Counted from the stretch's first letter, positions 1 to 64,000 are shown. The stretch: 64,000 nucleotides of DNA from a bacterium (GCA_963674965.2 CAXXFL010000007.1:192001-256000), one strand, 5' to 3'. Notes: generated from the letters alone by a model not told the origin. A program made the numbers and translations.

Positions 1-1
1 G

Positions 2-3000
2 GGATCGACGCCCGATGAGGGACAGGACCACGACTCCGACCTCCTGACCAACCTCCAGGAATATCAGAACCAGACCGACCCCTGCGAGACGGACACCGAC
101 TCCGACGACATGGACGACTACTTCGAGGTGGTCAACGCCTGTCTCGATCCCCGCGTCGGCGACTCCCTTTTGGACCCGGACTCCGATGGGCTGGCCAACC
201 TGGACGAGATGGACAACTCACTCGATCCCTGCGATCCCGACACCGACTCCGACGGCATGACCGACGGCTGGGAGGTCGAGTACGACGCCTGCCTCGATCC
301 CGCCTCGGGGGACTCCCTCCAAAACCCCGACGGAGATGGGGCCAATAATATCAGCGAGTTCAACAACTCGACCGATCCATGCCTCGACGACGACTCGGAT
401 GGCGACGGCATGACCGACGCCTGGGAAAACTCCTATTCCTGCATGATGGCCAACACCGTCGATACCAACCCCGACTACGACGGCGAGGGACTCGTGAACC
501 ACGACGAGTTCCTCTACTCCACCAACCCCTGCAACGTCGACACCGACTCCGACCAGCTTAACGACCTCATGGAGATATTCGTCTACGGCAGCAACCCCAA
601 CGACGTGGACACCGAGGGCGACGGGCTGATCGACCGCCTCGAGGTACTGACCTACAACTGCGATCCCACCGACGAGGACACCGACGACGACGGGTTGAGC
701 GACGCCTTCGAGGTCGGAGTCGTCGTCGGCGTGGGCTTCAATGGCGCGCTTAACACCGCCGCCGGAAACGACGACGTTATCCACGATCTGGCCGTCTGGC
801 TCGGCGCCGATTTATGGCCCGGCACCACCGCCGCGGGGGACGACCTCCAGGTGATTCCCCGCTTCCTTCCCTACCCGAGGCTGTTCATTACCGATCCCGA
901 CGACCCCGACACCGACGGCGACGGGCACGACGACCTCGCCGAGCTGTCGGCCGGGGCCAACCCGCTCGATCCCGATATCCTGCCCTCCCCTCTCGCCTGG
1001 GGTGGGGACACGGCCGTCAACCTATCCGACTACTTCATGGGAGACGGCCACTCCGTCTCCATCGCCTGGGCCGACGAATTCTACGGGGTGGCCTGGTGCA
1101 GGGACAATTCTTACTCCGGCGTCTGCGACTCCATCGAGTTCGCCGTGAAAAGCCTGCTCGGCGACTCCATCACGCCTCCCTTTACCTTGCCCACCTCCAG
1201 CTTCGCCTCGAGCCCGTCCATCGCCTGGACCGGCTCCGAGTTCGGCGTCGCCTGGTGTGAGGACAGCGACTGGGATTGGGTCTGCGACGGAGTGTACTTC
1301 GGCAGGATCGACCACGAAACCATGGCCATGGTGGGATCGACCCTGCCCATCGCGCCCTCCGACATGGTACCCAGTGAGCACCCCGACCTGGTTTGGACCG
1401 GCTCCGAGTTCGCCGTCACCTGGCATGACTTGGCAGACGATAACGACTGGTCCTGCGACCTGTGGACCGGAAGCACCGACTGCAATTACGAGGTGTATTT
1501 CACCAGAATCAGCGAATCGGGAGAAACCGTCTCCGCCCCCGTGAGAATAACCAACCAGCAGAGCATGAGCCTGTACCCGGACCTCCTGTTTAACCAGGAC
1601 TTGAACGAGTACGCCCTGGCCTGGGAGGACATGAAACTCGACGCCAACGACTGGTGCGAGATGGTGTGGGAATCCTCAGACTGCAACGGGGAGATATTCT
1701 TCACCAGGCTCACCGCCGGTGGGACCGTCATTGGACAGGAACAGAGAATCTCGCGCAGTCCCGGCTACAGCCAACACGCGTCCCTCGCCTGGACCGGGAC
1801 CGAGTACGGCCTCGCCTGGTGCGAGGACGACGAGGGCATGGGAGGAGGATGCGACGACGTTTACTTCTCCAGGATTTCCTCCCAGGGCGCCCCCGTCTCC
1901 GAGATCGTCCAGGTAACCTATAGCGAGGGCAAAACCTTCGCCCCCGACCTCGCCTGGATCGTGGACGGGTTCTGGATCGCCTACAGCGAGGACACCACCG
2001 AGTCATGGTACGGAGACGCCATTTACGTTGACGTGCTCACTCCCGAGGGAGACGAAACGGAATACCATCTCGAGCTTGCCGACGACGGAATGATGGCCTC
2101 GGAGTTTCCCGCCATCGCCGGAAACGACGTGGGAGCGGCCATCGCCTGGGAGGACGCCCGAGACGGCGACGTCGGAATACTTTTCTACCTCGTTAGCCGC
2201 GACGGAGACGGCGATGGACTGCCCGACGTCGTCGAGATGACCATGTGCGCCGATCAATTCAACCATGACACCGACGGCGACGGAATACTGGACGGGATCG
2301 AGGACGCGAACCTTAACGGCGTGGTCGATTCACCCGATGAAACCGATCCGTGCGATCCCGACACCGACGGCGACGGACTTTCCGACGGGATCGAGGACTC
2401 GGACCACGACGGGGTGGTGGACTCGAACGAAACCGATCCCACTCTCGCCGACACCGACGGCGATGGACTCTGCGACGGCTCGACCTCGGCCCCGGGCTGC
2501 GCCGCCGGAGAGGACTTGAACGGAAACGGAGTCGTCGACCAGGGAGAAACCGATCCATGCGACGCGGACTCCGACGGCGACGGAGTTAACGACGGAGATG
2601 AAACGTCCGCCGGGTCCAACCCCCTCGACGAGGACGTCGTCATGGGCTTCTCCGGCAAAGTGGGCGGAGACGTGCGCGTCACCTCCACCGCCGACGACTC
2701 ATGGGCCCCGTCCGTCGCATGGACGGGGTCCGAGTACGGACTGGCCTGGGAGGAGGACGTCGACGACTATTCCGAGATTTTCTTCCTTCGCCTATCGCCA
2801 CTGGGACAAAATATCGGCCTGAAGAAAAGGATCACCACGACTACCGATATCAGCTACAGCCCCAGCATTATGTGGACGGGCTCAGAGTTCGGACTGGCCT
2901 GGACCGACGGCCGCGACGGCAACTTCGAGGTTTATTTCAGCCGGGTCTCGGCCGCGGGAGTCAAAACCCTAGCCGATAAGAGAATCACCTATAACGATAC

Positions 3001-6000: not shown

Positions 6001-9000
6001 CCTTTTGGCTCGCGGCTTCGAGCCGGACCAGATCATGTACCTCAATCCCGACGCGACCCAGGCCTACGACGGCGACGGCGACGGCTACGCCGACGACGTG
6101 GACGGCGCTCCCACCCCGGCCGCTCTGCAGGCGGCCATCCTGGATTGGGCCACCGCCGACCTGGGGGTGGACAACCCGGGCGTGGGTCCGGGCGTGCCTT
6201 TAATAATTTATATGGTCGATCACGGGGGCGACGACTCGTTCCTCATCAACTTCACGGCCGCGGGCGCTGGCCAGGAGGTGACCCCCACCCAGCTCGACTC
6301 GTGGATCGACGCGGTGCAGGGGGGCGACACCTCGAACCCGAACGGGGTAGACGTGGTGGTGATTTACGACGCCTGCCGGTCGGGCAGCTTCCTGGACGAG
6401 GTGGGCGGCGGCGGTTCCGACCGTATCGTGATCACCAGCTCGGCGTCCTCGGAGAGCGCATACTTTGGCGTATCGGGCACGATCAGCTTCAGCCAGTTTT
6501 TCTGGCAGCGGGTCCGGACGGGCGCCACTCTCAAGTCGGCCTTCAACGACGCGGCGGCGGCGCTGGCCACCTGGGCCACGCAGACGCCGTGGCTGGACGA
6601 CAACGGGAGCGGGACTTACGCGGCCACCGGCGACGGCAAGGACGGCGACGCGGCGGACCTTTTCGTGGTGGGCGCGGACTTCGTTACCGGCGCGGTGCTT
6701 CCCGAGCTGACACCTCGCGGCGACGCGCTGCTCGAGGGCGACAGCCTGGATATTTACTCGGGCATACTTTACGCCAGCTCGAGCGAGATATCGGCCATGT
6801 TCGCCATTTTGACGCCGCCTGGCTTCTCACCTCCCCAGTCGGAGGGCAACTTCGACACGCCCTGGCTGGAGGACGAGGAGGGCAATCCCCTGCCTCGCGT
6901 TTACCTCGAGTACTCGAGCGCGACGGACGACTGGCGGCGTCGGCTGGACTCGGCCGAGCTGGCCGAGCTGTTCACGGTCAACGGCCGATATACTGCCACG
7001 TTATACGCGATCGATCTCGAGGGCCGGGTGACGGCGGCGGCGGAGTTCTCGATCACGGTGTTCGGCCCGGACCCTTACGAGGACGACGACTGGTGGAGCT
7101 CCGGCTCGAGCGTCGAGGTTAACTCGAGCTCGGCGCAGGCCCACAACTTCCACGACTCGGGCGACCGTGACTGGGTGAAGTTCTCCGTGGCCTTTGGGGA
7201 CACGGGATATTACTCTGTGTATACGGAGAACCTGGCGGACCGCTGCGACACGGTGATCGAGCTTTACGGCTACTCGGTGGCCGGCTCGACGGTGGTCCCC
7301 ATCGCGTTCGACGACGACTCGGGCCAGGACGGCGGCGGCTCGAGCCGTATTTTCATGTACCTGTCCGAGGGTCTTTATTACGCTGAAGTATATCAATACG
7401 GCGACACCATCGGGGGCCAGGACACGGAGTACGACCTCCGGGTGGACCACGACGAGGGCGACTACGGCTCGGTCGAGGGCTACGTGACGGACTCGGTGAC
7501 GGGCTTCGGGGTGCAGGGCGCGAACGTGATCGTGATCCTTGGCGGTCCTCCCCGCGTGGCCACCACCGGGGCGGGCGGCTATTACAAGCTCTCGAGCCTC
7601 CTGGCCGGCTCTGGATATCCCATGCAGGTGCAGGCGGCGAACTTCACCACCTGGTCGGGGACGGTGAACGTTGGCGTGAACCAGACCACCAGGAAGGACG
7701 TGGTGCTGGCGGCGAAGACCGGCACCTCGGGCGTGCTGATGGGCCACGTTTACGGTCACGGCGGCGCGCCGCTGGTGGGGGTCGGGCTCGAGGTCTCGGG
7801 CAAGTCCGTGGTGAGCGAGGCGGGCGGCCTTTACTCGATCCGTCTTGCTCCCGGAGCGGCCTACGTTTATTCGAGCTGGCCGGGCTACGAGCCGTACCTC
7901 GAGGAGGGGCTAATGGTTGTGGCCGGCGATACCACGGTGCATGAGGTGTCGCTCGAGCCGGTGGACACCGACGGCGACGGCCTTCCGGACTGGATCGAGA
8001 CCTCGGGCTGCACTGACGAGTCCGAGGCGGACTCGGACGGCGACGGCTTATGCGACGGCGATACCGCGGTGTATGACGGCGCGACTCTCGTCTGCTCGGC
8101 GGGCGAGGACCTCGATCTTGACGGCGAGGTCGGGGCCTCGGAGACCGACCCTTGCGACGACGACTCGGACGGCGACCTCCTCGGCGACGGCGACGAGGCG
8201 CTGACTTACGGCACGGACCCGCTCGAGGTTGACACGGACTCGGACGGCCTCGGCGACCGCCTCGAGGCGGTGGTCGTAAGCTGCCTCGATCCGACTGACG
8301 ACGACACGGACGACGACGGCCTTCTGGACGGAACGTCGAGCGGCGAGGACAAGGACGGCGACGGGGTTGTTGACGCGACGGAGACGAGCCCTTGCCTTTT
8401 CGATACGGACACGGATACGCTGGGCGACGGCGCGGAGGTGACGGTATACGGCACGGACCCGCTCGAGGTTGACACGGACTCGGACGGCCTGAGCGACGGG
8501 CTCGAGGTACCCTGGTGCACGTCGCCCACGGACGAGGACAGCGACGGTGACGGGCTTCTGGACGGCACGCCGAGCGGGGAGGACAAGGACGGCGACGGCG
8601 TGGTGGACGCGACCGAGACCAACCCCTGCGCCTTTGACAGCGACTCGGACGGCATCGGCGACGGGCTCGAGCTTGGGACTTACGGCACCAACCCGCTTAG
8701 GCAGGATACTGATTCGGATGGGATCGGCGACTACGTCGAGGCGGTCTCGAGCGCCTGTCTCGACGCTACGGAGGCGGACACCGACGGCGACGGCCTTCTC
8801 GACGGGACCATATTCGGTGAGGACAAGGACGGCGACGGCGTGGTGGACCCGGGCGAGACCAACCCCTGCCTCGAGGACAGCGACGAGGACGGGCTCGGTG
8901 ACGACGAGGAGCCGGGGCTGGGCCTGGATCCCCTCGAGTGGGACACGGACGGCGACGCTCTTCCCGACGGCTACGAGGTGGCGAACTCGAGCGGCCATGC

Positions 9001-9730: not shown

Positions 9731-9745
9731 AGGAGAATTATTTTT

Positions 9746-9778
9746 GCCCCAGCCGATCCAATGGAATTCGGCTGGGGC
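9746..9778. terminator. GC-rich hairpin between convergent genes, probable terminator
   Basis: GCCCCAGCCGA (9746-9756) / TCGGCTGGGGC (9768-9778) form a perfect 11-bp stem in an AT-rich context; the U-tract is weak. Confidence 0.55.
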
Positions 9779-9788
9779 TAAATTTTAA

Positions 9789-10775
9789 TTATTGTACTTG
9801 GACGCTCGCTTTCTCAAGTATCGCTCTTGCTTCTTTTACCATCCTGTCGATAAGAATTTTTACCGGTACCAAGTCATGAACCAGTCCTATGGACTGTCCC
9901 ACGTTAATTGATCCAGCGTTGACGTCGCCGTGTTTCCAAATCTTTGGTGACAGGCTGCCGGCCAACAGCGGAAAGATATCCTTCGTGTTTCCATTTCCAT
10001 TTTCTATCTCGATAATTTTTTTAATGGTCTCGTTTTTAATCGCTCTTCCTTGGAGACCGATGGAATTTCCGTAAAGGACGGTTTCATACTCTTGGCGTCG
10101 AATGATCTCTTCTTGAATATTGGGATGGACTTCGCATTCATCGGTGCAGATAAACCTGGTAGCCATCATGACCCCATCCGCTCCCAGGCATAAAGCCGAG
10201 GCCAGCCCTCTTCCGTCGGCTATGCCGCCGGTAGTGACGATAGGTATGGAAACCGATTCGGCGATCCTTGGCGTCAGGATCGAGGTGGCCACGTTGTCGT
10301 TCAATGGATGTCCTCCCTCCTCGACTCCGGCCGCCAGCACCGCGTCGTAGCCTACTTTTTCGCAGTGCAGAGCGTGTCTTACGGATCCCAGTTTATGTAT
10401 CATCTTCACGCCTGCGATTTTTAGTTTATCGATATAGGTCCCCTTCAAGAACCGGTCGAGAGGACTTCCCGCTATCTCGACGGCGGCTACTTTTTCCTCG
10501 ATGCAGACGTCGAAGATTTCCATGTATCTTTTTTCGCTGATCCTGAAATGTGGGAGCATGGTAACGTTCATCCAGAAGGGCTTATCGGTCATTGACCTTA
10601 CTTCCTTTATGGCCTCGCGGATTTTGTCCTTGTTGGCGTAATTGGCCGCCGTAAGGTTCCCAAGTCCTCCGGCCTCGGATATGGCGGCGCAAAGCCTGGG
10701 CTTTGCCAGGACCATCATTCCTCCGCAAAGTATGGGATACTCGATTCCGAGCATTTTTGTGATTCTCGTTTGCAT
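9789..10775 (-). CDS. Nitronate monooxygenase / enoyl-ACP reductase II (FabK-like) flavoprotein
   Basis: LGIEYPILCGGM, AAISEAGGLG, GVEEGGH, TGGIADGRGLASALCLGADGVMMATRF, GQSIGLVHD; 328 aa. Confidence 0.85.
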   Translation of the reverse strand: MQTRITKMLGIEYPILCGGMMVLAKPRLCAAISEAGGLGNLTAANYANKDKIREAIKEVRSMTDKPFWMNVTMLPHFRISEKRYMEIFDVCIEEKVAAVEIAGSPLDRFLKGTYIDKLKIAGVKMIHKLGSVRHALHCEKVGYDAVLAAGVEEGGHPLNDNVATSILTPRIAESVSIPIVTTGGIADGRGLASALCLGADGVMMATRFICTDECEVHPNIQEEIIRRQEYETVLYGNSIGLQGRAIKNETIKKIIEIENGNGNTKDIFPLLAGSLSPKIWKHGDVNAGSINVGQSIGLVHDLVPVKILIDRMVKEARAILEKASVQVQ

Positions 10776-17918: not shown

Positions 17919-18695
17919 ATGGCCCTTAACGTATTGACTATCGCGGCCTCGGACCCCTCGGGCGGGGCGGGGATCGAGGCGGACGTGAAAGTCGCCTGCG
18001 CCTTTCGCGTCAACGCCCTCACGGCCATCACCGCGCTTACGGCGCAGGATACCTCGGGAGTGAAGGGCGTGGTCCCGACCGACCCCGGACACTTTAATCG
18101 AACGCTGGGGCTTTTGGCCGATGACCAACCCATCGCGGCGATCAAGATCGGCGCCATGGCCACGAGTCGAAACCTCGAGTCCATCCGGGACTTCCTTCTT
18201 GGCCTCGATCCCAGGCCGCCGGCGGTGCTCGATCCGGTCTTCAAGTCCACGGGAGGATTCATTCTTTGTCCTCCCAACGCCGCCGAGATGGTGGTCCGTG
18301 AACTCCTGCTTCTCGTTGCACTGATAACTCCCAACGCCGTCGAGGCCGCGGCGCTCACCGGGATAGAGGTTAAAAACCGGGACGACGCCGAGAGGGCCGC
18401 GCGAAAACTTGTCGATTCAGGCGCCAGGGCCGCGCTGGTCAAGGGCGGGCATCTGGAGGGAAGGATCGTGGACGTCCTTTGTTGGGGCGACAAGACTAGA
18501 ACTTGGGAAGGCGAGCGGGCGCCGGGAGAATATCACGGCACGGGCTGCGCTCTTTCCATGGCCATAGCCTGCGGGTTGGCCCGGGGCATGGAAATACCGG
18601 AGGCCGTGGGCGAGGCCAGAGGGTTCCTCCTCGGCTGCATGAAAAGAGCAAGCCGGGGAAAAGGCGAGGCCTATATCCTGGACTTTCTTCCCTGA
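17919..18695 (+). CDS. thiD: Hydroxymethylpyrimidine/phosphomethylpyrimidine kinase
   Basis: LTIAASDPSGGAGIEAD, ITALTAQDT, VLDPV, ITPNAVEA, LVKGGH, HGTGCALS. Confidence 0.88.
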   Translation: MALNVLTIAASDPSGGAGIEADVKVACAFRVNALTAITALTAQDTSGVKGVVPTDPGHFNRTLGLLADDQPIAAIKIGAMATSRNLESIRDFLLGLDPRPPAVLDPVFKSTGGFILCPPNAAEMVVRELLLLVALITPNAVEAAALTGIEVKNRDDAERAARKLVDSGARAALVKGGHLEGRIVDVLCWGDKTRTWEGERAPGEYHGTGCALSMAIACGLARGMEIPEAVGEARGFLLGCMKRASRGKGEAYILDFLP

Positions 18696-20326
18696 AGTCC
18701 ATTTTTGGCGTAGATTCGGAACCTGACCAGGCTGGTCCTTGTTACGCCGTCGTCCAAAGATTTCTCGGTTACGCTCCATCCGTCCAGTTCGGCCGCCAGG
18801 AAATACCCTCTCGCGAGTTTCTCAACTGGTTCGCCCTCCGGATTGAGAGCGGCGCGGTCGAAGGCCGAGTGCCCAATTATGGTCCCGTCCTTGAACTCGT
18901 GGGCCATGACCACCAGGTAGTTCGGTTTCGAGTCGAGGACGTAATCCAGGTCGGCGTCCATTCCCGCCGCGCCGGGACGGGAGGCAAGGTAGCGGTCCAC
19001 CAGTCCGTTGACGTCGAGTATCCGGTCGACGTCGGTCACGAACCCGATGTAGCCTATGTCGCCGCAGGCGATAAGGTCGGAGCGCTCCGCGTGAAGCAGG
19101 AGCCAGGAGGCCGCCGGCCCATACCACTTGGCCTGCGACCCGTGCCAGGCGCCGGATTCCAGGTCCTTTAGCTCCAGCTTTTTGAGGGGAGTCCATTCAC
19201 CGGTAAGGACCGTCATCAGGGTCGCCAAAACCAGGACGGGAAGCCTGAACCGGGAAAGGAAAGGAGAGTATTTTTCAGACCCGGCTTCTTCCCCCTCGCT
19301 CGCTTTATAAGGCATAACGGCGATAAAGCCGGTCCCGATCACGACGGGGAGGACGTGCATAATAAAGCGGTAGTCCGGCATGAAGTCCCCACCGGCGTAG
19401 ACTATAAAGCCCGCGTAAAGAACGAGCAGAAAAAAGGGGGCCTTGGTCCATGTCCATTTATCCGGGTTTTTCTTGTCCAAGGCCGCGAGAACGGCCCCAA
19501 GCATGAGGGTCGCGAAAGCAGGCCAATATCGAATCGCGGCGTGGATCGAATATTTCAATCCCACCAACGCCCCAGGAAGACCCAGTCCCGTTTTGGCGTA
19601 AAAGGTATTGGGCACGAGCGAGTGAAAGTGGAGAAGTCGAAAGACCGTATAGGCCGCGAAGGGCGCGGCGAAAAAAATGCCCGCCCAGAAAACGATCGCT
19701 TTTTTATCGCCTTTCGAGGAGGTCGCGTGCGCGATGAAAACGGCCGCGGGCGCGAGCAGACCGTCGGGCCGCGCAAGACAGGCGATAAAGGACAATAGAT
19801 ACGGCCAGGGACCGGGCCGGCGAGGATTGCAGGAGGCGACGGCGGCCATGGCTAAAGCCGCGAACATGGCGGTTTCAAGTCCCCGCGTGGACCACGCCGC
19901 AAAGTAGACACAAACGCCAAGGCAAAAGGCGGCAAGGGCGCCGGCGATTCTCGAGCCGGTCCTTGCCCTCACCCATACGCCCAGGATCAATATGGAAGCC
20001 AGCGACGATACGCCGCCCATCACGGCCGCCGTGACTCGAGGATGAACGTTCCTTTTAAAGCCCTCGGCCATGCCCATGACCCAGAGGAAGTTCGAGTAGC
20101 CCTCGACGGGGTCGGCCCCCGCCGGGGCCCTGTTGTATCTGAGGCCCTGTCCCGCGGCCAGGTTGCTCGCGTATCGGGCCGAAATCATGGCGTCGTCGCA
20201 AAGGTCCCGGGCAAAGGAAAACAAAAGCCCGGCGTGTATTACGCAAGGGCCCGCCAGGGCGGCCAGGAATATAATTTCCATCGCCCATTTCCAGGCCCGT
20301 CCTCTTAAATTTTTCTTTTTACTCAC
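18671..20326 (-). CDS. Polytopic membrane glycosyltransferase, GT-C fold (AftB/arabinofuranosyltransferase-like)
   Basis: DDAMISARYASNLAAGQGLRYN, VEGYSNFLW, GLET, LARPDG, PNTFYAK, GGDFMPDYRF, IGYIGF...DVNGLVD; many TM helices. Its 3' end overlaps thiD by 25 bp. Confidence 0.65.
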   Translation of the reverse strand: MSKKKNLRGRAWKWAMEIIFLAALAGPCVIHAGLLFSFARDLCDDAMISARYASNLAAGQGLRYNRAPAGADPVEGYSNFLWVMGMAEGFKRNVHPRVTAAVMGGVSSLASILILGVWVRARTGSRIAGALAAFCLGVCVYFAAWSTRGLETAMFAALAMAAVASCNPRRPGPWPYLLSFIACLARPDGLLAPAAVFIAHATSSKGDKKAIVFWAGIFFAAPFAAYTVFRLLHFHSLVPNTFYAKTGLGLPGALVGLKYSIHAAIRYWPAFATLMLGAVLAALDKKNPDKWTWTKAPFFLLVLYAGFIVYAGGDFMPDYRFIMHVLPVVIGTGFIAVMPYKASEGEEAGSEKYSPFLSRFRLPVLVLATLMTVLTGEWTPLKKLELKDLESGAWHGSQAKWYGPAASWLLLHAERSDLIACGDIGYIGFVTDVDRILDVNGLVDRYLASRPGAAGMDADLDYVLDSKPNYLVVMAHEFKDGTIIGHSAFDRAALNPEGEPVEKLARGYFLAAELDGWSVTEKSLDDGVTRTSLVRFRIYAKNGLQGRKSRI

Positions 20327-23564: not shown

Positions 23565-24545
23565 ATGGCCAGACGCATAGCAATACCGATCGCGCTTTTA
23601 GCGGGCCTACTTTTATGCGCGCCGCTTCTAGCGGGACTTATCGTGGATAATAGGAGAGTCGAGGCCAGGGGAGCCAAGCTCGTTAAGGTAAATCTTCACA
23701 AGCAAAGGGGAGTCCTGATCGTCTCGGGAGGCGCGGAGACCCTCATGGACGCGAGCTTCCGGTTCGACCGCGAGATATGGAGGCCCATCGTGGACTACGC
23801 CGTGGGAACCGACAAGGTGGGAAATCTGACGGTAAGACAGCCGACCTCCTTCGTCACCCCGCCCGGCGAGGGCCAAAACGAGTGGGACATAAGACTTTCT
23901 CCCGACTTGCCCATGGACCTTTTTATCGACTCGTCCAGCGGCGCCAACGTTCTCGACCTGGGAGGGATCGACCTGGCTCTATTCAGGCTCGAGGGCTCGA
24001 GCGGCAAAGTGGACCTCAGCCTGCCGGGCCGTTTTCCCTCCATGGGAAAGATAAGGGTCACGGCCTCAAGCGGCAACATCGATTTCGACGCGCCCGGCGA
24101 TTATCCGAGTCTCGAGTCGATCAGGATCAGGTCCTCAAGCGGATCGATAAATTTCAGTCTCACCGGAAAAACGGGAAGCTATGTTGACCTGGTGACGGAC
24201 TCGAGCAGCGGAGAGACCAGCCTCAACTTCACCGGGGAGTACGAAAAAGGGGCGAATTTCCTTATCGACGCCTCGAGTGGGCCGATCAAAATGGACCTGA
24301 CGGGAAAATGGAAGGGAGACCTCACCGCCAGGATCGAGGCAAGCTCGAGCCCGGTAACCGTATACCTTCCCGTGGACGTGGGTCTTCGCGTACTGGCCAG
24401 CTCTTCCTCGGGCGAGGTCAAAGCCGACGGTTTCATCGCCAATGAAGACGAGTACGTCAACACCCAATACGGCAAATCGGACGTGAACTTGAAATTGAAG
24501 ATCACGACCTCGAGCGGGCCGATCAAGTTATATCTGACCGAGTAA
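23565..24545 (+). CDS. Secreted toast-rack / DUF4097-like beta-strand repeat protein
   Basis: Signal peptide; NEWDIRLSPDLPMDL; repeated [D/A]SSSG-x-hydrophobic beta units; VYLPVDVGLRV...YVNTQYG. Confidence 0.65.
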   Translation: MARRIAIPIALLAGLLLCAPLLAGLIVDNRRVEARGAKLVKVNLHKQRGVLIVSGGAETLMDASFRFDREIWRPIVDYAVGTDKVGNLTVRQPTSFVTPPGEGQNEWDIRLSPDLPMDLFIDSSSGANVLDLGGIDLALFRLEGSSGKVDLSLPGRFPSMGKIRVTASSGNIDFDAPGDYPSLESIRIRSSSGSINFSLTGKTGSYVDLVTDSSSGETSLNFTGEYEKGANFLIDASSGPIKMDLTGKWKGDLTARIEASSSPVTVYLPVDVGLRVLASSSSGEVKADGFIANEDEYVNTQYGKSDVNLKLKITTSSGPIKLYLTE

Positions 24546-24585
24546 GGAACTCTTTCCTTTTACGAGACCTTTCCGTCCATGGGTT

Positions 24586-25323
24586 TCAGATGGTCTTTTC
24601 GACCTTCGGGGCCGTTTGGGCCTCTCTCATCTTTTTGATCTCCTCGAGTTGGGCCTTGGCCGAGGCCATGCGGGACTCCTTGCGGATTTCCTTGATCTTG
24701 TCCTGAAGCGACCTGTCCTGGGTTTCCTTGTTGGCCTCGATCTCGGCGGACAGCTTGTCTATGCGCTGCCTAACGTTCTCGAGGGCCCTCATGTCCGCCT
24801 CGGGGGACATGCGGTCAAGCTGGCGCATGATCGCTCGCCTGGCCTCGAGGGTCGCCAGCCGGGCCAGGGCCTGCTCCTTCTCCCTGCGCAATCTCTCGAT
24901 CTCGCCCTGGAAGTCAACCAGGCTTCGCTTGGCCTCCTCCGCCTCGATCTTGGTGTGCTCGAGTTCGCCCTTCAATCGAGATATCTCAGCCTCGAGGTCG
25001 TCCTTTTTCTCGATCAGTATAAGGGCCACCTCGTCCTCGCCCTTGTCGACCGCCACCATGACCTGCTCTTGGAGGGAAGCCAGTTCCTTGTTCTTCTGCT
25101 CCAGCTCCGAGGCCAGCTTGTTGCGAAGATACACGATGCCGGCCACGGCCTTCTTTAGACTCTCGTACTGATTTAGCCTCTCTTGTATGGCCGACTCGTA
25201 AACCGCCTCGGGGTTGCTCTCCTCCTTGCGGCCGATCCAGCCGGACCAAAGGCCCCTCCAAAGATTCATTAACCTCGCAAAAAAACCCTCGTTTGCCATT
25301 CGAGTCACCTCCTCCAGGTTCAT
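24586..25323 (-). CDS. PspA/IM30 family protein
   Basis: GFFARLMNL, ESNPEAVYESAI, AVDKGEDEVA, long coiled coils, terminal AQLEEIKK. An alternative start at 25299 is possible. Confidence 0.8.
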   Translation of the reverse strand: MNLEEVTRMANEGFFARLMNLWRGLWSGWIGRKEESNPEAVYESAIQERLNQYESLKKAVAGIVYLRNKLASELEQKNKELASLQEQVMVAVDKGEDEVALILIEKKDDLEAEISRLKGELEHTKIEAEEAKRSLVDFQGEIERLRREKEQALARLATLEARRAIMRQLDRMSPEADMRALENVRQRIDKLSAEIEANKETQDRSLQDKIKEIRKESRMASAKAQLEEIKKMREAQTAPKVEKTI

Positions 25324-37660: not shown

Positions 37661-37964
37661 GAAACCTCTCGTTTCTCCTCGCCGCCGCGAGGTTGATTCA
37701 TTATATTATATAGCCAACTCGTGAGCCTTGCCATATTTTTTATAGGTCCCGGGGCTTTCCAGTATCCATGCAAAAGTACCCCGAAGTTAACGCCCCTGGC
37801 GGAGGGTCTCTTTACATTGTTCGGTTTCCGAGAGTATACTCTGCCAATAAGCTATTGCGTTTTCAAGGGCTTTGGGCGCAGGTTCGCCAAATCGGGAAAA
37901 CGCGCCATGGATCAAGGCCGGGAAAGCCGGTCATGAATCCATAAAGCGCGGATGGGAAGAGATC

Positions 37965-39119
37965 ATGACCAAGCATTCATACAAGAGGATCGAGGGCAAC
38001 AGGGAAAAGTTTCTTAAAATCAAAGATGATAAGATAACCGATCAAAAAAGCTGGGACCTTTTTAACAAGGCACGAAAAGCGGCGCTTATCACCTGGTATG
38101 ATATTTTTTCCAACCATTTTAATAAGCCGGGGGAAAGAGATGAATTGCTCTTGTACTTCAGGATGGCTGGAGAAGAAGCCATGTATCTTCATCATCAACT
38201 GGAATTGTTAAAGCTTTATCCGGATATTTTCGATGATAGCGAAAAGAATCTCATATTTCAAAATCACTTCGAAAACGTTAAGAGAATATTAATCAGCGTT
38301 AAAAAAGGGTCTAACTGGCTTGCAAGCACGGACTATGATTTTATCCACATATTATTTGCCGTTGGGGAATCGGTCCGTCATGGCAATTTCGATTTGATGA
38401 ACTATTATCTAGACGCGGCAAAAGCCGATAAAGGCTTGGGCTCAGTTTTTGATATATTTTCTGAGCTGTTTGAGCAGAATGACTCTGAAAAAGCTATCAA
38501 TTTATTGGAGAATGGCAATCCACATAAAGCTACAATTAAATATATAATTGAATATATCCTACATCAAAACGACGATATCGCGCTAAATTATAAATTAAAA
38601 TTATTAAATAGTCCTGAGATGATATTCAATAAATATTACGAACACAGATCCAAGTGTTATCTCGATAAATCAGACAATAAAATATCCTACTATTTATTTA
38701 TTGTCGCGTCACTTCTTTTTCATAATAACAAGGACACCCTGCCGATTATTCAAAAATGCCTGGAACGCGATGATTTTATATGGAAATATTTACCGTTATC
38801 GATGATGTATTATAAGAAGCAAGCGATCGATACGAAATTACTTGACTCCATTGTCGATAAATACCATTCACTTTACGTTGCCGAGGGCAAGGCTTACAGC
38901 AAATGCCAATACATGTGTCTTTTTAACATAATCGCGGCCTGTATCCATAATCCAGAATACAAGGAAAAGTTGTTCGAACTGGACATAGGCGAGACCGAGC
39001 CTCAATATCTTTTCGAGACGGTCAGGTTCACTATCATGGAGGAACTTCTGGGTTGCATATACTGGCCTCCATTTAACTGTTTTGGAGTGGACGAGAATAA
39101 TCTTCCGTCCGTTTTATAA
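37965..39119 (+). CDS. Hypothetical protein (low-GC, helical)
   Basis: Long stop-free ORF in markedly AT-rich DNA; ATG 37965 follows GGAAGAG; no family recognised. Confidence 0.65.
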   Translation: MTKHSYKRIEGNREKFLKIKDDKITDQKSWDLFNKARKAALITWYDIFSNHFNKPGERDELLLYFRMAGEEAMYLHHQLELLKLYPDIFDDSEKNLIFQNHFENVKRILISVKKGSNWLASTDYDFIHILFAVGESVRHGNFDLMNYYLDAAKADKGLGSVFDIFSELFEQNDSEKAINLLENGNPHKATIKYIIEYILHQNDDIALNYKLKLLNSPEMIFNKYYEHRSKCYLDKSDNKISYYLFIVASLLFHNNKDTLPIIQKCLERDDFIWKYLPLSMMYYKKQAIDTKLLDSIVDKYHSLYVAEGKAYSKCQYMCLFNIIAACIHNPEYKEKLFELDIGETEPQYLFETVRFTIMEELLGCIYWPPFNCFGVDENNLPSVL

Positions 39120-42082: not shown

Positions 42083-43993
42083 ATGAGGAAAATACTGGCC
42101 GCGCTGGCTTTTTTGTTTATATTGACGGCCGCGCCCGTCCGGCTCCTGGCGGACGACATTGACGATTATTATTTCGTCGCCGATTTCGACGTGGGCGCCG
42201 TCTCGGACGTCGCCGTCACGCCCGACGACAGGTACGTTCTGATCCTGGATGGTGACAGCAACAAACTCCACTTCCTGGACACCTGGGACTTCGACCTGAT
42301 TGAGGGGGCCTCCGTCGATTTCGGCTCCGATTCTCCCCTCTGTCTGGACATATCCCCCGACGGCGACTACGCCTATATAGGCCTTGACTCGGGCGAGTTG
42401 GCCATAGTGGATATCAGCGGGCTGTATTCCCTCTCCCCCATCGAGGAGCCGGAGGATGAACTGACGGTCTATTTTAAAACTATTGATGGAGACGGGGCAC
42501 TTGAAAAAATCGCGGCCGTGCCTAATTACAACTCACCAACCTCCGACCCATATATAATTATGGGTTTTCCTTCTAGCGCGGTGGAAGCTGTTTACTGGGT
42601 TAAACATTCTGGTGGGTCAAGTTTGACAACTGCTCTGGCTTTCCCAAGTCATTCAGTAGAGGTTATCGAATTGGAAAGAGGAGAAAAACAAGTCTTTGAA
42701 ATATATGAAAGTAGCGGAAATGACTACCTAGGTATTATTCAATGCGATGGCACTTGTACAAATACCAATGGTATCGACAAGCTTGTAACTCCATCAACAG
42801 GCTTGGCGGCAGACCCGATCAATGACGATTTTCTCGTGATCTCTTATTATACTCAGAGCGGTAGCACTCCTCTCGGAAGTATCCAATATCTTGATACAAG
42901 CAGCTTTGACAGCCAGACAGTAGAATCTGAAGAAGTTGGCATTTCATCGACATCGATAGCTATATTATCTTCTGGACTGAATGATTCTACTACAACGGCT
43001 CTTTTTTTAACCGACCAAAATGCTGAAATGACGGAAATAAACAATAGCACTTTAGCCGCTACTTCCGGTACAGTCGCGTCTCCTTCAACCGACAACTTTT
43101 CCGCCCTCGCCGCCTCCAGCGGAAACGACAGATTTTTTTACGCGGGCACGGACGGCGCTTCCAATTCCTTTCACGTCTTTACGGCCAACCCATGGATAAG
43201 TTACCTGACCGCCAACGCGGGGGCCACGGTAACGGAGGCGGACGGAGACGAGTTTCCTTTGGCTTTTTCGGCGTTTAAAAGGGGAAGTGATCTTGATTTC
43301 GACGTCTACGTGGACGGCGACTTTGGTTCCTGGAGCGGGTCCGTGGCCGACGGAGAAGAGTCGGAGTCGGCGGCTGGGGACACGGTTGCCGTCGTAATCA
43401 ACGTCGCCGTTGACGACCTTGACGAGTGCGAGAACGTTCTCACGGTGGTGGCCGAGGACTCGGCGGGCCGGGAGGGCCGGGACGCGGTGAAGGTGGTGAA
43501 GGACTTTCCGCCGCCGGAGCCGGACTTCAGCCTGGATTTCGGCGACCGGAAGCTCATTATCGAGTTCAACGTGGACGACCCGTGCGACTTAAAGGAGTAC
43601 GTGATTTTCTACGGCGACTCGGCGACCCTGGACAATAGTTTTAACGACTACGACGACCTCCTTGCCAGCGGCGCGGATTACGTCACTCTCGACTCGGGCC
43701 TGACCGACGGCAAGAAGATCAAGGAGACCATCGAGGGTCTTACCAACGGGGTCCTCCATTACGTTTACCTGGTGATCGTGGATAAGTCGGACAACTCGGC
43801 GGTCAGCGACGCCCGATCGGCCACGCCGCAGGTTGTCCTGACCCTCACCGACCTCACCGGCGAGGAGGGCGGCGTCGATTGTTTCGGGTCCCTCGGCGGC
43901 GCGAGGACCGGCGACCCCAAAAGCGCGGCGGTCCTTTTGGCCCCCCTGCTCATGGCGGCGGCCTACAGTTCAATAAGGCGGTGGAAGAAATGA
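42083..43993 (+). CDS. Secreted acidic surface protein (beta-propeller + Fn3-like) with C-terminal Cys-TM-basic sorting signal (MYXO-CTERM/MXAN_2561-like)
   Basis: Signal peptide; DVAVTPDDRY and LDISPDGDYAY blades; IEGLTNGVLHYVYLVIVDKSDN..ATP Fn3-like end; tail GEEGGVDCF...AAVLLAPLLMAAAYSSIRRWKK. Confidence 0.7.
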   Translation: MRKILAALAFLFILTAAPVRLLADDIDDYYFVADFDVGAVSDVAVTPDDRYVLILDGDSNKLHFLDTWDFDLIEGASVDFGSDSPLCLDISPDGDYAYIGLDSGELAIVDISGLYSLSPIEEPEDELTVYFKTIDGDGALEKIAAVPNYNSPTSDPYIIMGFPSSAVEAVYWVKHSGGSSLTTALAFPSHSVEVIELERGEKQVFEIYESSGNDYLGIIQCDGTCTNTNGIDKLVTPSTGLAADPINDDFLVISYYTQSGSTPLGSIQYLDTSSFDSQTVESEEVGISSTSIAILSSGLNDSTTTALFLTDQNAEMTEINNSTLAATSGTVASPSTDNFSALAASSGNDRFFYAGTDGASNSFHVFTANPWISYLTANAGATVTEADGDEFPLAFSAFKRGSDLDFDVYVDGDFGSWSGSVADGEESESAAGDTVAVVINVAVDDLDECENVLTVVAEDSAGREGRDAVKVVKDFPPPEPDFSLDFGDRKLIIEFNVDDPCDLKEYVIFYGDSATLDNSFNDYDDLLASGADYVTLDSGLTDGKKIKETIEGLTNGVLHYVYLVIVDKSDNSAVSDARSATPQVVLTLTDLTGEEGGVDCFGSLGGARTGDPKSAAVLLAPLLMAAAYSSIRRWKK

Positions 43994-57980: not shown

Positions 57981-58047
57981 GATATCCTCCTGGTTTTTCC
58001 GGAGACGCCTACAATCCGGCGCCTCCTTATCCTCCGACTTGGCGGCC

Positions 58048-58671
58048 CTACTTGTCCAGTTCCTTTATAACCTCGTCGGTAATGTCGAAGGCCGGGTCAC
58101 GATAGATGATGGGATTGAAATTGGGCAGGTTCGAGGCGGGCGGAGACACGTCCAGGACAAGGCAGTACCCGCCCTTCTTTCCGATTTCCTCCATCACCTT
58201 ATTGAGATCGTCCTCCAGCGGCTTGAGGGTCTCGTTCTTCTTGGCGTTAAGGTCCTCTTGTATCTTGGCCCTCTCGATCTGCAACTCGTTAAGCTTGTTG
58301 TTGTACTGGCTTTGCATGGTCTGAAGCTCGAGGTTTTTATTGGCCCTGGTGTACTGGTCCCAGAGCTGGCCCTTCTGGATGATCTCCTCGGAAAGGGAGG
58401 AGATTTTTTTCTGCATCTCCTCGAGCTGTTTCTGTTTGGTCTTGAGAGGGGCAAAGGCCTTGTCCTTCTCCGCCTCCAGCGACTCTTTTACCTTAATGCC
58501 GGCCTTGCTCTCCTCGAGCACCCTCTGGAGGTTGACGAAGCCCACCTTGCAAACCGCCTGAGGAGCGGGGGCCGCGGCGTCCTGGGCCCGGGCCCCGAGC
58601 GAGGCCAGACACCCGGCCAGGACAATAATAAAAGCAAGCGACAATCCTTTTATTCCATGATTCATTTGCAT
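58048..58671 (-). CDS. skp: Periplasmic chaperone Skp/OmpH
   Basis: Signal peptide, KVGFVNLQRVL, long coiled coil, LVLD...IIY....DITDEVIK; directly after bamA; AGGAAGG SD. Confidence 0.85.
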   Translation of the reverse strand: MQMNHGIKGLSLAFIIVLAGCLASLGARAQDAAAPAPQAVCKVGFVNLQRVLEESKAGIKVKESLEAEKDKAFAPLKTKQKQLEEMQKKISSLSEEIIQKGQLWDQYTRANKNLELQTMQSQYNNKLNELQIERAKIQEDLNAKKNETLKPLEDDLNKVMEEIGKKGGYCLVLDVSPPASNLPNFNPIIYRDPAFDITDEVIKELDK

Positions 58672-58734
58672 TTCGCACCTTCCTTTCAATGTTTTCGCCT
58701 CGATGGGCCGGACGATTTCAACCGGCCGACCTCC

Positions 58735-61053: not shown

Positions 61054-61075
61054 TACCGCCCGTTACAACTTAAAC

Positions 61076-61104
61076 AAGTTACCAGCATTCCACTTTTAAC
61101 GCAA
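61076..61104 (-). promoter_or_regulatory. Putative sigma70-type promoter of the bamA-lipid A operon
   Basis: Minus strand TTGCGT-N17-TAACTT with an extended -10 TG. Confidence 0.45.
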
Positions 61105-61224
61105 GCTTATCGCCCTTGTCTCCATGACGCGGGGCGGCCCGATCAAGGTCCATATTGCTCGCGCCAGGGTATTTGATTCCCCTGAGCCAAAAGCGTTCCA
61201 TTTTACCGCTTCCTTAGTAAAGTC

Positions 61225-61264
61225 AAAGGGCGGACCCGGTCCCCACCCGGTTCCCGGCCCGCCC
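61225..61264 (-). terminator. Probable intrinsic terminator after trpB2
   Basis: Minus strand GGGCGGGCCGG...CCGGGTCCGCCC followed by TTT, just after the stop codon. Confidence 0.45.
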
Positions 61265-61280
61265 AATAACAACATAATTA

Positions 61281-62639
61281 TTAGAGGTTTACCTGAGGAA
61301 GCTTCTTCAGGGCCTCCTCGATGGCTTTCTCCGGATGCTCGTAGTCCTCCATCTTGCCCGAAAGATAATAATCATAGGAGGCAAGATCGAAATGTCCGTG
61401 ACCGGAGGCGTTGAAGAGTATGACCCTTTCCTTTCCCTCTTCCTTGGCCTTATTGGCCTCCTCGATCGCGGCCTTGACCGCGTGGGCCGTCTCCGGCGCC
61501 ACCACGTGTCCCTCGGTCTTGGCGAAGAGCATGGCCGCGTCGAAGACCTCGGTCTGATGGTAGGCCACCGCCTCGATCAGGTTCTCGTGCACGAGCTGGC
61601 TGATGATGGGAGCGTCTCCATGGTAGCGAAGTCCACCCGCGTGGATGCCGGCCGGCACGAAGTCGTGTCCCAGCGTGTACATCTTGGCGATGGGCGCCAT
61701 CTTGGCCGTGTCGCCGTAGTCGAAGGCGTAAACGCCCTTGGTCAAGGTCGGGCATGCCGCCGGCTCCACCGCCACTCCCCTGACTTCCTTGCCGTTTATC
61801 TTGTCGTACATGAAGGGAGCGACCATGCCTCCGTAATTGGAGCCGCCGCCGCAGCATCCGATAACCACGTCCGGGTAATCGCCGACCATCTCGAGCTGCT
61901 TTTTGCTCTCGAGCCCTATTACCGTCTGATGCAGGATAACGTGGTTGAGCACGCTGCCCAGGGCGTAGTGGGTGTCGTCGCGGGTGGCCGCGTCGAACAC
62001 GGCCTCGCTGATGGCTATGCCCAGGCTGCCCAGGCTGTCGGGGTCCTGGGCCAGGATGGCCTTGCCCGGCTCGGTGAGGTCAGAGGGGCTGGGAACGACC
62101 TTGCCGCCCCAGGTCTCCATAATGATACGGCGGTAGGGCTTCTGGTTATAGCTCACCTTGACCATGTAGACCATGATCTCGATGCCCATCAACATGCCGG
62201 CAAAGGAAAGAGCGCTTCCCCATTGTCCCGCGCCCGTCTCGGTCGCCAGTCGCTTAACTCCCTCTTTTTTATTGAAATAAGCCTGGGCCACCGCCGTGTT
62301 GGGCTTGTGCGATCCCGCGGGGCTGACTCCTTCCCACTTGTAGTATATCTTGGCCGGCGTGCCCAGCGCTTTCTCCAGGCTCTCCGCCCTGACCAGCGGG
62401 GAGGGACGCCAGATTTTAAGAATGTTGAGTACTTCCTCGGGGATTTTGATCCACCGCTCCATGCTGACTTCCTGCTCGATAAGTCCCATGGGAAAAAGGG
62501 GCGCCAGGTCGTCGGGCGTCACCGGCTGGAGAGTTCCCGGATGCAGAACCGGCGTTGGTCCTCCCGGAAGGTCGGGAAGGATGTTGTACCATTCCGTGGG
62601 CATATCCGATTCATTCAGAAAAATTTTCTTGACCGCCAT
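61281..62639 (-). CDS. trpB2: TrpB2-type tryptophan synthase beta chain-like PLP enzyme
   Basis: [90 protein letters not shown] before ATG 62639. Confidence 0.93.
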
Positions 62640-62902
62640 AATCTCCTCCATTCTCTTTATTGTCGTTAAATTCCTCGATCGCGCCTTGGCGCGGACTTAG
62701 CCCTCCCATGTCCTGGAAAAGCGAGGCTAAAGTACGTGGATTTTTCAGGGCTTCACCATCGCCATCGCCGGCGAAGGATAATATAGGGACCTTGCCAAGA
62801 CGCAAGGTTAACTCGTTTTCGATCGTGCTTTCCGATGTTCATAACGGGGCCATATTCATTACAAAACTGGCCGGCCCGGCCTTAATGGAAGAGGCCGGAC
62901 AA

Positions 62903-63751
62903 TCAGCCTTTGATAAGGACCAGGTCTCCTTTTTTGGAATCGAGCTTCTCTCCCAGATGGTCGCACTTAACGTTGAACATGAAGAAGAACCGCTCTCCCC
63001 TTCCCTCGAGGGCCTCGTAACTGGCCTGTCCCTTGGCGATGACGAGGTCGGCGCTTTCGAGGGCCTTTTGGAACATGCCTTCTCCCACGCCCGGGACTAC
63101 CCCCGCGAAGTTGGTTCCCGTCTCGATGACCCTGCCCACTTTTTCGAGGCCCACCTGTTTTGCGTCCTCCATGGTGGCGTCCATGGCCACGGGCCCGGAC
63201 TTGACGGCGGCAAGGACCATCTTTCCGTGGGCCTTAAGGCCCTCTAAAAGCACGCGGTCCAGGACCATCTCGCCCGCGTTGTCCAGGATATAAAGTATCC
63301 TTCCCGCCCCGGCCAGGGCGGCCTCGAGATCGGAAAAATCGAACCTCGTCACGCCGTCGCCAAAAGCCTTTTCCAAGGCGGCCTCGAGTTCGTCATTGTC
63401 CCTGACTCCCATGTCAAGGCAACTGCCGGCCAGGGCCAGCCTGAAGGCGGCCTCGAGCTTGTTCTCCGCCGACTTGATCCTGCCCAGCAGGGACGGAAGC
63501 GCGGCCATGACCTTTTCGTTGGCCTCCCGTTTCATATCGGCGTAAAGGTCGGGCCTGCCCGCGACCTGGGCCACCTTGTGAAGGATAAGGCTCACGTTGT
63601 AAGCCGGAGGCTTTTCTTTATCCAGATCGGCCAGAACGGAAGCGGCCTGAGTGTAGGCCGCCCAGCGCTCGTCTTCATCCTCAATCGCGAATAATATAGT
63701 TTTGTTAAGCTGCTCCAGGAAACAAGGAAAACAACTGCTGTCGGACTTCAT
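62903..63751 (-). CDS. Damage-control phosphatase, DUF89/ARMT1 family
   Basis: CFPC N-terminus, DLYADMK, YILDNAGEMVLD, DAT, IAKGQ.SYE, VKC. Confidence 0.8.
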   Translation of the reverse strand: MKSDSSCFPCFLEQLNKTILFAIEDEDERWAAYTQAASVLADLDKEKPPAYNVSLILHKVAQVAGRPDLYADMKREANEKVMAALPSLLGRIKSAENKLEAAFRLALAGSCLDMGVRDNDELEAALEKAFGDGVTRFDFSDLEAALAGAGRILYILDNAGEMVLDRVLLEGLKAHGKMVLAAVKSGPVAMDATMEDAKQVGLEKVGRVIETGTNFAGVVPGVGEGMFQKALESADLVIAKGQASYEALEGRGERFFFMFNVKCDHLGEKLDSKKGDLVLIKG

Positions 63752-64000
63752 ATTCGGCTCCTTCCCCCCGCGGCTAACTCGCCGAATCGGCCAACCGGGC
63801 CAAATCGGCTTTGCCCTGCGCGCTAGTTACGTTAAACCCCCGCCATATCTCCATAATTATCGAGGATGTATAAACATAAACCAAACTCGCTCCAAGGTCA
63901 AGACCGGACAAGCCAAAGCATGAAAGAAACCGAGAGACAATTCCGGCGGCTCATGGAAACCACAATAACAACCAAGCCGGCCATGAACGCTGGATGACCC

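Follow-up and report, generated by a model that had tools for sequence, protein, structure and literature searches.

CTCGAG in a bacterial genome: an over-represented palindrome that probably reflects a neighbour bias centred on TCGA

The palindrome CTCGAG recurs so densely in a 64,000-bp stretch of a bacterial genome that it raises the question of what keeps it there. The stretch, called here the window in its full length, is G000:C7:192001-256000 (GC 0.593), part of a 6.50-Mb assembly of 7 contigs (G000). A reading made from the sequence alone had likened the word to HIP1 (GCGATCGC), the highly iterated palindrome of cyanobacteria. It had proposed that a methylase of the XhoI/PaeR7I or TaqI type maintains the word, or that the word is a signal for DNA uptake or chromosome organisation, and that its absence marks acquired DNA. 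Our own answer, which we hold to be probable, is that the excess is an unusually strong, lineage-specific bias in neighbouring bases that acts at the level of DNA and is centred on TCGA, and not a HIP1-like element.

Abundance in genes and spacers

CTCGAG occurs 160 times in the window (2.5/kb), where base composition predicts 20.5 copies, a 7.8-fold excess; the background of about 0.3/kb given in the sequence-only reading agrees with 20.5 per 64 kb. Markov models of order 1, 2 and 3 predict 30.4, 47.6 and 107.9 copies. The word is the top hexamer of the window, followed by TCGAGG (139) and CCTCGA (125), and 26 of the 160 sites extend to CCTCGAGG. Dinucleotide-preserving shuffles gave 3.11 ± 1.77 copies of this octamer, and none of 100 reached 26. 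In the whole genome CTCGAG is the most frequent of all hexamers, with 10,762 copies (1.66/kb) in 6.50 Mb. The contigs range from 1.21 to 2.01/kb and from 3.98 to 6.18 in the ratio of observed to order-0 expected counts (o/e0), the genome mean being 5.27. CCTCGAGG, with 1,910 copies (0.29/kb, o/e0 11.0), is the most frequent octamer.

The share of CTC among the Leu codons of this genome is 0.27; GAG supplies 0.75 of the codons for Glu, TCG 0.30 of those for Ser and CGA 0.06 of those for Arg. Genes were called with an iterative scorer of open reading frames (ORFs) of our own (4,273 genes, 81% coding), and synonymous codons were shuffled within each gene in 20 replicates, which keeps the protein sequence, and so the dipeptides, together with the codon usage of the gene. 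Real genes hold 9,962 copies against 3,536 ± 56 in the shuffled ones (2.82-fold, z = 115). The excess is found in all three frames: 7,824 against 2,827 for CTC GAG (2.77-fold), 181 against 52 for xCT CGA G (3.49-fold), and 1,957 against 658 for xxC TCG AG (2.98-fold). The sequence-only reading was therefore right that a dipeptide preference is not enough, and the excess did not disappear under the codon- and dipeptide-preserving shuffle that it had named as decisive. Among hexamers merged with their reverse complements and expected at least 100 times, CTCGAG is the most enriched (2.88-fold). Under stricter nulls it remains 2.48-fold enriched when third positions are permuted within two-base boxes, and 2.16-fold when the junction dinucleotide is kept. 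The excess is widely spread, as 2,152 of the 2,557 genes of 900 bp or more lie above their own shuffle expectation, and the per-gene ratio is nearly flat across GC bins (1.75-3.07). After CTCGAG, the coding words that stand highest over the synonymous null are A/T-run words (AAAAGG/CCTTTT, TTTTTA, AGGAAA; 2.3-2.6-fold), and words with ACAG/CTGT and CACA/TGTG are strongly depleted.

The in-frame Leu-Glu pair CTC-GAG makes up 79% of the genic copies, and the palindrome could be incidental to translational codon-pair selection for NNC-GAG, especially NTC-GAG. Several features fit such selection. CTC-GAG accounts for 7,824 of 9,962 genic copies and for 7,824 of 12,643 Leu-Glu pairs. The strongest coupling is at the codon boundary C|GAG, in every amino-acid box; its odds ratio grows with codon typicality, from 3.3 to 9.4. 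Spacings of up to 300 bp are mostly multiples of 3 (3,270, vs 934 and 840 for the other two remainders). The probability that the third base is C before GAG, compared with GAA, is 0.78/0.26 for Leu CTN, 0.94/0.57 for Ile, 0.76/0.22 for Val and 0.78/0.38 for Ala. C-ending codons are thus generally preferred before GAG, and the rule is not specific to Leu-Glu. Selection on codon pairs does not, however, account for the equal enrichment of the other two frames, nor for the course of the CTCGAG ratio over codon-typicality bins (2.24-2.94), which is flat at 2.7-2.9 in the upper five.

Non-coding DNA bears on the same point. Short spacers totalling 170 kb, trimmed by 30 bp at each end, contain 87 CTCGAG, giving observed-to-expected ratios of 2.06 (order 0), 2.71 (order 1), 2.66 (order 2), 1.19 (order 3) and 0.91 (maximum order). 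Spacers of 100-220 bp have 33 copies against 10.5 expected and those of 220-400 bp have 56 against 22; the 376 spacers without an open frame of more than 45 codons have 13 against 5.4-5.8 (p about 0.004-0.006). The test for intergenic enrichment that had been suggested thus came out positive, at 2.2-3.1-fold. CTCGA and TCGAG are also enriched in every mirrored context of frame and strand, 1.4-3.3-fold. Both results speak against a translational origin. Since the enrichment extends to non-coding DNA, the bias operates on DNA and not only on translation, and we consider codon-pair selection an unlikely explanation of the whole.

The unit of the bias

Is the hexamer itself the unit? Of the 56,663 TCGA in the genome, 45.5% have C before them and 44.5% have G after them; the two flanks coincide in 19.0%, vs 20.2% expected. 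At maximum Markov order the ratio of observed to expected is 0.94 for CTCGAG and 1.02 for CCTCGAGG. A direct test of coupling between the ends is offered by the frame xxC TCG AGx, where position 1 is a synonymous site; it was run on G000 alone. Position 1 is C in 1957/2436 cases (0.803) when TCG is followed by AG, and in 4466/5545 (0.805) when TCG is followed by A and a base other than G (odds ratio 0.99, p 0.83). Before TCG with a base other than A the probability is 0.681, and the odds ratio between positions 1 and 5 is 1.9. Position 1 is coupled to position 5 and independent of position 6. In the Leu-Glu frame the probability of GAG is alike after CTC, ATC, GTC and TTC (0.94, 0.92, 0.94 and 0.93), and therefore the first base of the hexamer is irrelevant to the NTC-GAG coupling; T at position 2 strengthens the effect. 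Because the ends are independent, it appears that nothing reads the palindrome as a unit, and hence we infer that no HIP-like element is present.

The excess resides in shorter words. The tetramers CTCG, TCGA and CGAG each reach about 1.2-1.4 times the codon-aware expectation, and the pentamer CTCGA/TCGAG about 1.95 times, the highest of all pentamers when A/T runs are excluded. Nested synergy under the synonymous null is 1.22 for CTCG, 1.21 for TCGA and 1.15 for CTCGA, and 1.03 for CTCGAG. In the mechanism that we propose, the favoured tetramers would build the pentamer, and CTCGAG would be its extreme tip. It is the sole hexamer that has the favoured pentamer on both strands, and it also spells two abundant codons. 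That it is the commonest hexamer, about 2.9-fold enriched, would follow from the meeting of the double-strand pentamer and the abundant Leu-Glu codon pair CTC-GAG in it. Other NTCGAN hexamers had been described as frequent; this is true of ATCGAG and CTCGAT (genome o/e0 4.07 and 4.23) and untrue of GTCGAC and TTCGAA, which are depleted (0.58 and 0.71), so that the enrichment is not equally common to all members of the set.

Longer words add nothing. The heptamer CCTCGAG is 2.78-fold enriched under the synonymous null, vs 2.88 for the hexamer. A search for extended context of the kind found in uptake signals (9-12 nt with conserved flanks) found none, with maximum-order ratios of 1.08-1.09 for heptamers and 0.82-1.15 for NCTCGAGN octamers. 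The suggestion of a DNA-uptake signal is thus left without an extended word.

How does the word compare with HIP1? In Xu et al. 2018 (PMC5861425), a HIP is required to have an abundance of at least 0.2/kb and an O/E above 16; with a frame-specific order-2 Markov model HIP1 attains O/E 16-317, at densities of 0.2-2.73/kb, and ordinary octamer palindromes stay below 10. Applying the yardstick as given there (frame-specific second-order Markov, coding and non-coding DNA separate; PMC5861425), we obtained an O/E of 2.98 for CTCGAG, 2.79 for CCTCGAGG and 3.85 for the best octamer, GCTCGAGC. Both words are abundant enough (1.66/kb and 0.29/kb), and frame independence and occurrence in non-coding DNA are also found (2.77, 3.49 and 2.98; intergenic 2.2-3.1-fold). 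The O/E values of 2.98 and 2.79 fall well below 16, and the whole word does not behave as a unit (odds ratio 0.99, hexamer synergy 1.03, maximum-order ratio 0.94). The proposed kinship with HIP1 breaks down on these two counts, magnitude and the uncoupled ends of the word. There is a likeness nonetheless. As with HIP1 and the cyanobacterial HIPs, CTCGAG is a GC-rich palindrome, the top word of its length and of comparable density. Like HIP1 it occurs in all frames and in non-coding DNA, is lineage-specific, and has a candidate methyltransferase encoded in the genome; a methyltransferase specific for the word is named as a HIP1 trait in Elhai 2015 (PMC4390886). Unlike HIP1, it is only about 3-fold enriched, forms no cooperative unit and splits into tetramer and pentamer biases, and the candidate methyltransferase is no orphan, since an endonuclease gene adjoins its gene. 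A full-text literature search found no paper on an over-represented CTCGAG palindrome in a genome.

That CTCGAG or CCTCGAGG is nevertheless a selected functional element, be it HIP-like, an uptake signal or a chromosome-organising signal, is suggested by their standing as top hexamer and top octamer, by a density (1.66/kb) within the HIP1 range of 0.2-2.73/kb given in PMC5861425, by the occurrence in non-coding DNA, and by two observations described below, high retention in paralogues and near absence from a foreign island. The O/E values (2.98 for the hexamer, 2.79 for the octamer) remain far from the threshold of 16 given there. Enrichment is much the same in each of the four palindromic NCTCGAGN octamers (2.25-3.85 under the frame-specific order-2 model), which reveals no extended motif. 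The ends of the word are independent, and the enrichment is graded over one-off neighbours. We regard a selected element as highly unlikely.

A genome signature, or a context-dependent codon-pair bias, consists of the over- and under-representation of short oligonucleotides. What is seen here resembles such a signature: the excess is graded, involves overlapping short words into which it decomposes, is uniformly spread over native genes, is missing from acquired DNA and differs among relatives. It is unlike the usual signature in its strength, in that a single hexamer, CTCGAG, heads the ranking by count and also that by enrichment over codon-aware nulls, and in its coincidence with the presumptive target of a resident enzyme. 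On the preferred reading of a TCGA-centred neighbour bias, the source would be context-dependent mutation or repair, or weak selection at the DNA level, acting slowly over the whole native chromosome, and presumably not selection on translation.

The bias is a trait of this lineage. In a search of species-representative genomes no other species turned up in the genus of G000, which was compared with four other species of the family, all metagenome-assembled genomes, and with the rest of a phylum set of 13 genomes. The family members (GC 0.57-0.64) have CTCGAG o/e0 values of 1.76, 1.60, 0.99 and 2.28, with hexamer ranks 304, 369, 969 and 120, and the rest of the phylum has values of 0-2.23. Codon usage is the same overall in the family (CTC/CTN 0.27-0.39, GAG 0.67-0.82). 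Leu-Glu is spelled CTG-GAG vs CTC-GAG 75/42, 59/29, 53/25 and 40/36 times in the relatives, vs 125 and 407 times in a 400-kb sample of G000. TCGA, CGA/TCG and CTCG/CGAG are raised in G000 relative to the family (o/e0 for TCGA 2.36 vs 1.25-1.33), and CA/TG-containing words and GAGCTC are lowered (GAGCTC 0.70 vs 2.07-3.05). A member of the same order, G006, encodes a TaqI endonuclease (E 1.7e-91) and has a TCGA o/e0 of 0.03. Across the phylum TCGA stands at 0.03-0.16 in G006, G008 and G009, at 2.39 in G012 and at 2.36 in G000; the loci sampled for G006, G008, G009 and G012 were L024-L026, L030-L035, L040 and L157-L160. In G012 CTCGA/TCGAG is 3.0-fold enriched, yet CTCGAG only 1.64-fold. A TaqI_C domain search was uninformative, with matches in 11 of 13 genomes.

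Restriction-modification genes and the case for methylation

XhoI and PaeR7I cut CTCGAG, and cognate restriction sites are usually avoided. The genome encodes a system of the XhoI/PaeR7I type, on another contig than the window. A gene for an endonuclease of the XhoI family (R, 238 aa; G000:C6:34917-35633) matches PF04555 over positions 2-190 of 191 (E 1.8e-89; a second value obtained is 3.6e-89), a family that gave no match in 14 control genomes. The R protein retains all 90 columns that are invariant among 20 sequences (R and 19 homologues). Its stop codon is overlapped by 4 bp by a methyltransferase gene (M, 295 aa; C6:35630-36517; PF01555, E 2.1e-40). R and M are flanked by secA on one side and a ubiA-family gene on the other, and there are no mobility genes in their vicinity. 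R is atypical, with a GC content at third codon positions of 0.536, a codon score under that of every called gene and no CTCGAG; M is native-like (0.743 and the 30th percentile), and both its Leu-Glu pairs are CTC-GAG. M has the motifs TSPPYW (motif IV) and DPFSGTGTT and is a close homologue (E 9e-116) of the Thermus thermophilus putative methylase of PDB 2ZIE, which is cited as M.TthA0409 in reviews (PMC7544214 and PMC10406627). In class beta, according to PMC10406627, SPPY belongs to N4-cytosine and DPPY to N6-adenine enzymes. M is therefore predicted from its SPPY motif to form N4-methylcytosine. Judged by adjacency to the PF04555 endonuclease alone, it would recognise CTCGAG.

Could methylation then maintain the sites? 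An XhoI/PaeR7I-type methyltransferase, or another one acting on TCGA or CTCGA, might lower site loss or bias repair, as has been proposed for HIP1. The intact R gene overlapped by an SPPY-type PF01555 gene, and the native-like codon usage of M, are in accord with this. The uncoupled ends of the hexamer, whose first C has no special role, are not; in addition, the shift from CTG-GAG to CTC-GAG seen against the relatives is a transversion and involves no deamination step, and both the specificity and the target base of the methyltransferase are predictions. Other carriers of the endonuclease provide further evidence. PF04555 comprises 7,994 clusters at E ≤ 1e-10, the best non-self match to R being 66% identical, and at least 582 species genomes carry it. 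Over the 1,098,895 bp that surround the PF04555 gene in the 80 best loci, there are 238 CTCGAG against 308.8 (order 0) or 348.2 (order 1) expected, a mild depletion (o/e0 0.77). The highest enrichment among these loci is 3.2-fold, and 20 of the 80 have no site. In the phylum PF04555 is matched in 3 of 13 genomes. The copy of G002 is an N-terminally truncated remnant of 184 aa, 56% identical, which has lost 8 residues from the conserved core and has no methyltransferase among the five neighbouring ORFs scanned. The match in G010 is a 34-position fragment with a stop.

Because the ends of the word are uncoupled, the 80 carrier loci are unenriched and PF04555 is not rare in the phylum, the restriction-modification (R-M) system is probably not the cause of the CTCGAG excess. 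The XhoI/PaeR7I-like methylase anticipated by the sequence-only reading thus has a counterpart in an encoded endonuclease with its adjacent methyltransferase, but maintenance of the word by it is unsupported. The system probably coexists with the bias without causing it.

In E. coli, very-short-patch repair shapes the frequencies of CCWGG and CTWGG. G000 encodes a solitary Vsr-family mismatch endonuclease, between epimerase and response-regulator genes (G000:C3:292793-293296), and a C5-cytosine methyltransferase with no recognisable endonuclease gene beside it (G000:C3:248882-249976). Both count in favour of a methylation-linked cause and recall the E. coli system, in which repair bias could in principle enrich a methylation site. 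Unlike in E. coli, the two genes lie 43 kb apart. Nor is there a depletion of the one-off words with T for C, which a single deamination would produce: in G000 vs the family, CTTGAG/CTCAAG stands at 1.39 vs 1.42 and TTGA/TCAA at 1.40 vs 1.45, and an origin in repair of the very-short-patch type is therefore disfavoured. Vsr is present in 4 of 13 genomes, with CTCGAG o/e0 values of 5.27, 2.28, 2.23 and 0.88, vs 0-1.76 in those without it; with larger samples the separation proved only weak, and the correlation was set aside. The CCWGG-containing heptamers GGCCAGG and CCTGGCC are among the commonest heptamers of the genome.

That this lineage avoids certain sites is clear from other words, but CTCGAG is exempt. 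As fractions of the shuffle expectation, RGATCY stands at 0.05-0.09, CAGCTG at 0.10, CTAG at 0.28, GTCGAC at 0.38 and GAGCTC at 0.47. A spill-over from such avoidance (of GAGCTC, CTGCAG and the like) into CTCGAG was considered and rejected, the deficit of GAGCTC being about 1,450 and the excess of CTCGAG about 6,400. Among the family relatives sampled, depletion of GGATCC and CAGCTG is common to all and that of AGATCT is found in most. An N-terminally short BglII-family ORF of 155 aa (G000:C7:118997-119485), the only such gene here and without a methyltransferase beside it, is possibly a relic and may serve as a weak internal control for RGATCY avoidance. A search of the genome for the PvuII family gave no match; its controls were silent too, so that this is no evidence of absence. 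The contrast with ordinary restriction-site avoidance is plain: the word that the system presumably targets outnumbers every other hexamer and has 10,762 copies to protect. One may speculate that the R-M system is recent or that compositional pressure outweighs avoidance, or else that a system of this kind is especially worth keeping in a host rich in CTCGAG whose phages mimic it.

Several observations weigh against the preferred reading. R is an intact endonuclease of a CTCGAG-cutting family and the only intact copy in the 13-genome phylum set, and the genome that holds it is the only one with a strong excess, which argues for methylation. Of the 64 hexamers that are palindromes, CTCGAG stands clearly apart (O/E 2.98, the next 1.80), where a by-product would be expected to be less prominent. 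When the next two bases are preserved in the null, a residual enrichment of 1.35-fold is left. The gene calling was crude, the relatives were sampled at 50-112 kb each, and no mutational or repair enzyme behind the CTCGA bias was identified.

Two further points of this kind come from paralogues. Close relatives in which to follow the turnover of sites were sought with the BamA of the window in a metagenome scan, and none was found; a search of 5.8 billion proteins turned up no YchF homologue closer than 73% identity, and two of three DNA sequencing runs of one study, for which no RNA run was listed, gave contigs of the same organism only, with no divergence. Paralogues within the genome (80-98% identity) were therefore used as a proxy. 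CTCGAG is retained in 325/358 cases (0.908), vs 0.741 overall, the first of 666 hexamers before de-duplication; this high retention is in keeping with methylation. In two-copy families it is retained in 74/86 (0.86 vs 0.70; rank 8 of 596; bootstrap difference +0.08 to +0.23), and its one-off neighbours are at 0.69-0.71. Where only conserved amino acids are counted, CTCGAG is at 175/180 (0.97), vs 1338/1441 (0.93) for other NNC-GAG; other NTC-GAG are at 278/308 (0.90), and GAC-GAG (0.97) and CCC-GAG (0.96) are as high. The effect is mostly amino-acid conservation together with general NNC-GAG retention. It is mainly because a small hexamer-specific edge in retention is possible that methylation-linked maintenance, rather unlikely as we judge it, keeps the weight we give it. 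On balance the neighbour bias still seems to us the probable explanation.

Acquired DNA, the window and implications

The expectation that lack of CTCGAG would mark acquired DNA is borne out at the scale of the genome. Of the 1,295 windows of 5 kb, 33 have no CTCGAG, and twelve of these cluster in G000:C6:280-380 kb. The region from about 270 to 382.6 kb of C6 (about 112 kb) has 16 CTCGAG, against about 29 from composition, where native DNA has about 5 times its expectation, and it holds the two longest site-free gaps of the genome (26.0 and 19.8 kb). Two tyrosine integrases lie near its borders, one at about 272 kb, the other at 381-382 kb; directly past the distal one the density is back to the native level. 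Pfam searches of 84 ORFs found, besides the integrases, transposases (IS110, DDE and four near-identical rve), serine-recombinase domains and relaxase-like fragments, and defence genes that include SIR2+HerA, GmrSD, Schlafen/AlbA_2, an MmeI-type enzyme flanked by SNF2 helicases, and PLD nucleases. The island is a mosaic that also has duplicated BON and sigma-54-activator genes and an extra ATP-synthase gene set. Lack of CTCGAG flags recently acquired DNA, as would be the case with any slowly acquired genome signature.

In the window, the low-GC stretches that had been singled out as lacking the word do lack it, but they carry no weight because they are too short and too AT-rich. At the genome-mean enrichment of 5.27-fold, the chance of finding no site is 0.31 in 9789-10775 (a minus-strand gene of the nitronate-monooxygenase family, PF03060; GC 0.498, 11 TCGA), 0.49 in 37965-39119 (plus strand, GC 0.371, in the ORF 37872-39119) and 0.58 in 42470-43100 (plus strand, GC 0.420, in the ORF 42083-43993). 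Individually, they are uninformative on the absence of CTCGAG. The last two ORFs have no Pfam match and are set among glycosyltransferase genes (GC 0.37-0.42 in the parts examined); they look like a swapped polysaccharide-synthesis cassette.

The dense stretches hold the 12 copies each that had been counted by hand, exactly: 6731-7957 (plus strand, GC 0.649), where composition predicts 0.41, and 23988-24996, where it predicts 0.31. The former lies in a giant plus-strand gene (4929 aa; -5059 to 9730 by gene call), which begins about 5 kb before the window. Contigs from the source runs skip, join and vary inside this gene, which suggests that its internal repeats were collapsed by short-read assemblies. 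The latter takes in the 3' end of a plus-strand toast-rack gene (DUF2154/DUF4097; 23565-24545; PF17115, PF13349) and part of a minus-strand PspA/IM30 gene (24586-25323; PF04012). The examples of codon phase given earlier agree with the site list, the ORF coordinates and the gene calls: in the giant gene site 6731 is read as CTC GAG, site 6778 is in the phase C TCG AG, and site 20035 is in the phase xCT CGA Gxx of a minus-strand gene (18671-20326).

What, then, does the abundance of CTCGAG mean for this organism? One conceivable answer is that about 10,800 N4-methylated CTCGAG (1.7/kb) form a dense mark of self, kept by methylation-dependent hypomutability or repair bias acting per half-site, which would make it a non-cyanobacterial, R-M-linked analogue of HIP1. 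If so, foreign DNA that lacks CTCGAG, the 112-kb island for example, would be open to restriction or exclusion. We consider this quite improbable. On the probable reading, that of a neighbour bias centred on TCGA, the genome illustrates how unremarkable preferences among neighbouring bases can give rise to a conspicuous "iterated palindrome". Frame-specific Markov O/E, end coupling at synonymous sites and the study of non-coding DNA are the tests that separate the two. Within this genome, the density of CTCGAG also offers a practical way to tell native from acquired DNA. Finally, the coexistence is unusual: an intact resident enzyme presumably targets the very hexamer that is most frequent in the genome, whereas a relative of the same order, with TaqI, has nearly eliminated TCGA. 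If the R-M system is active, about 10,800 sites per chromosome set would need protection, and the organism may be useful for asking when restriction-site avoidance evolves and when it fails to.

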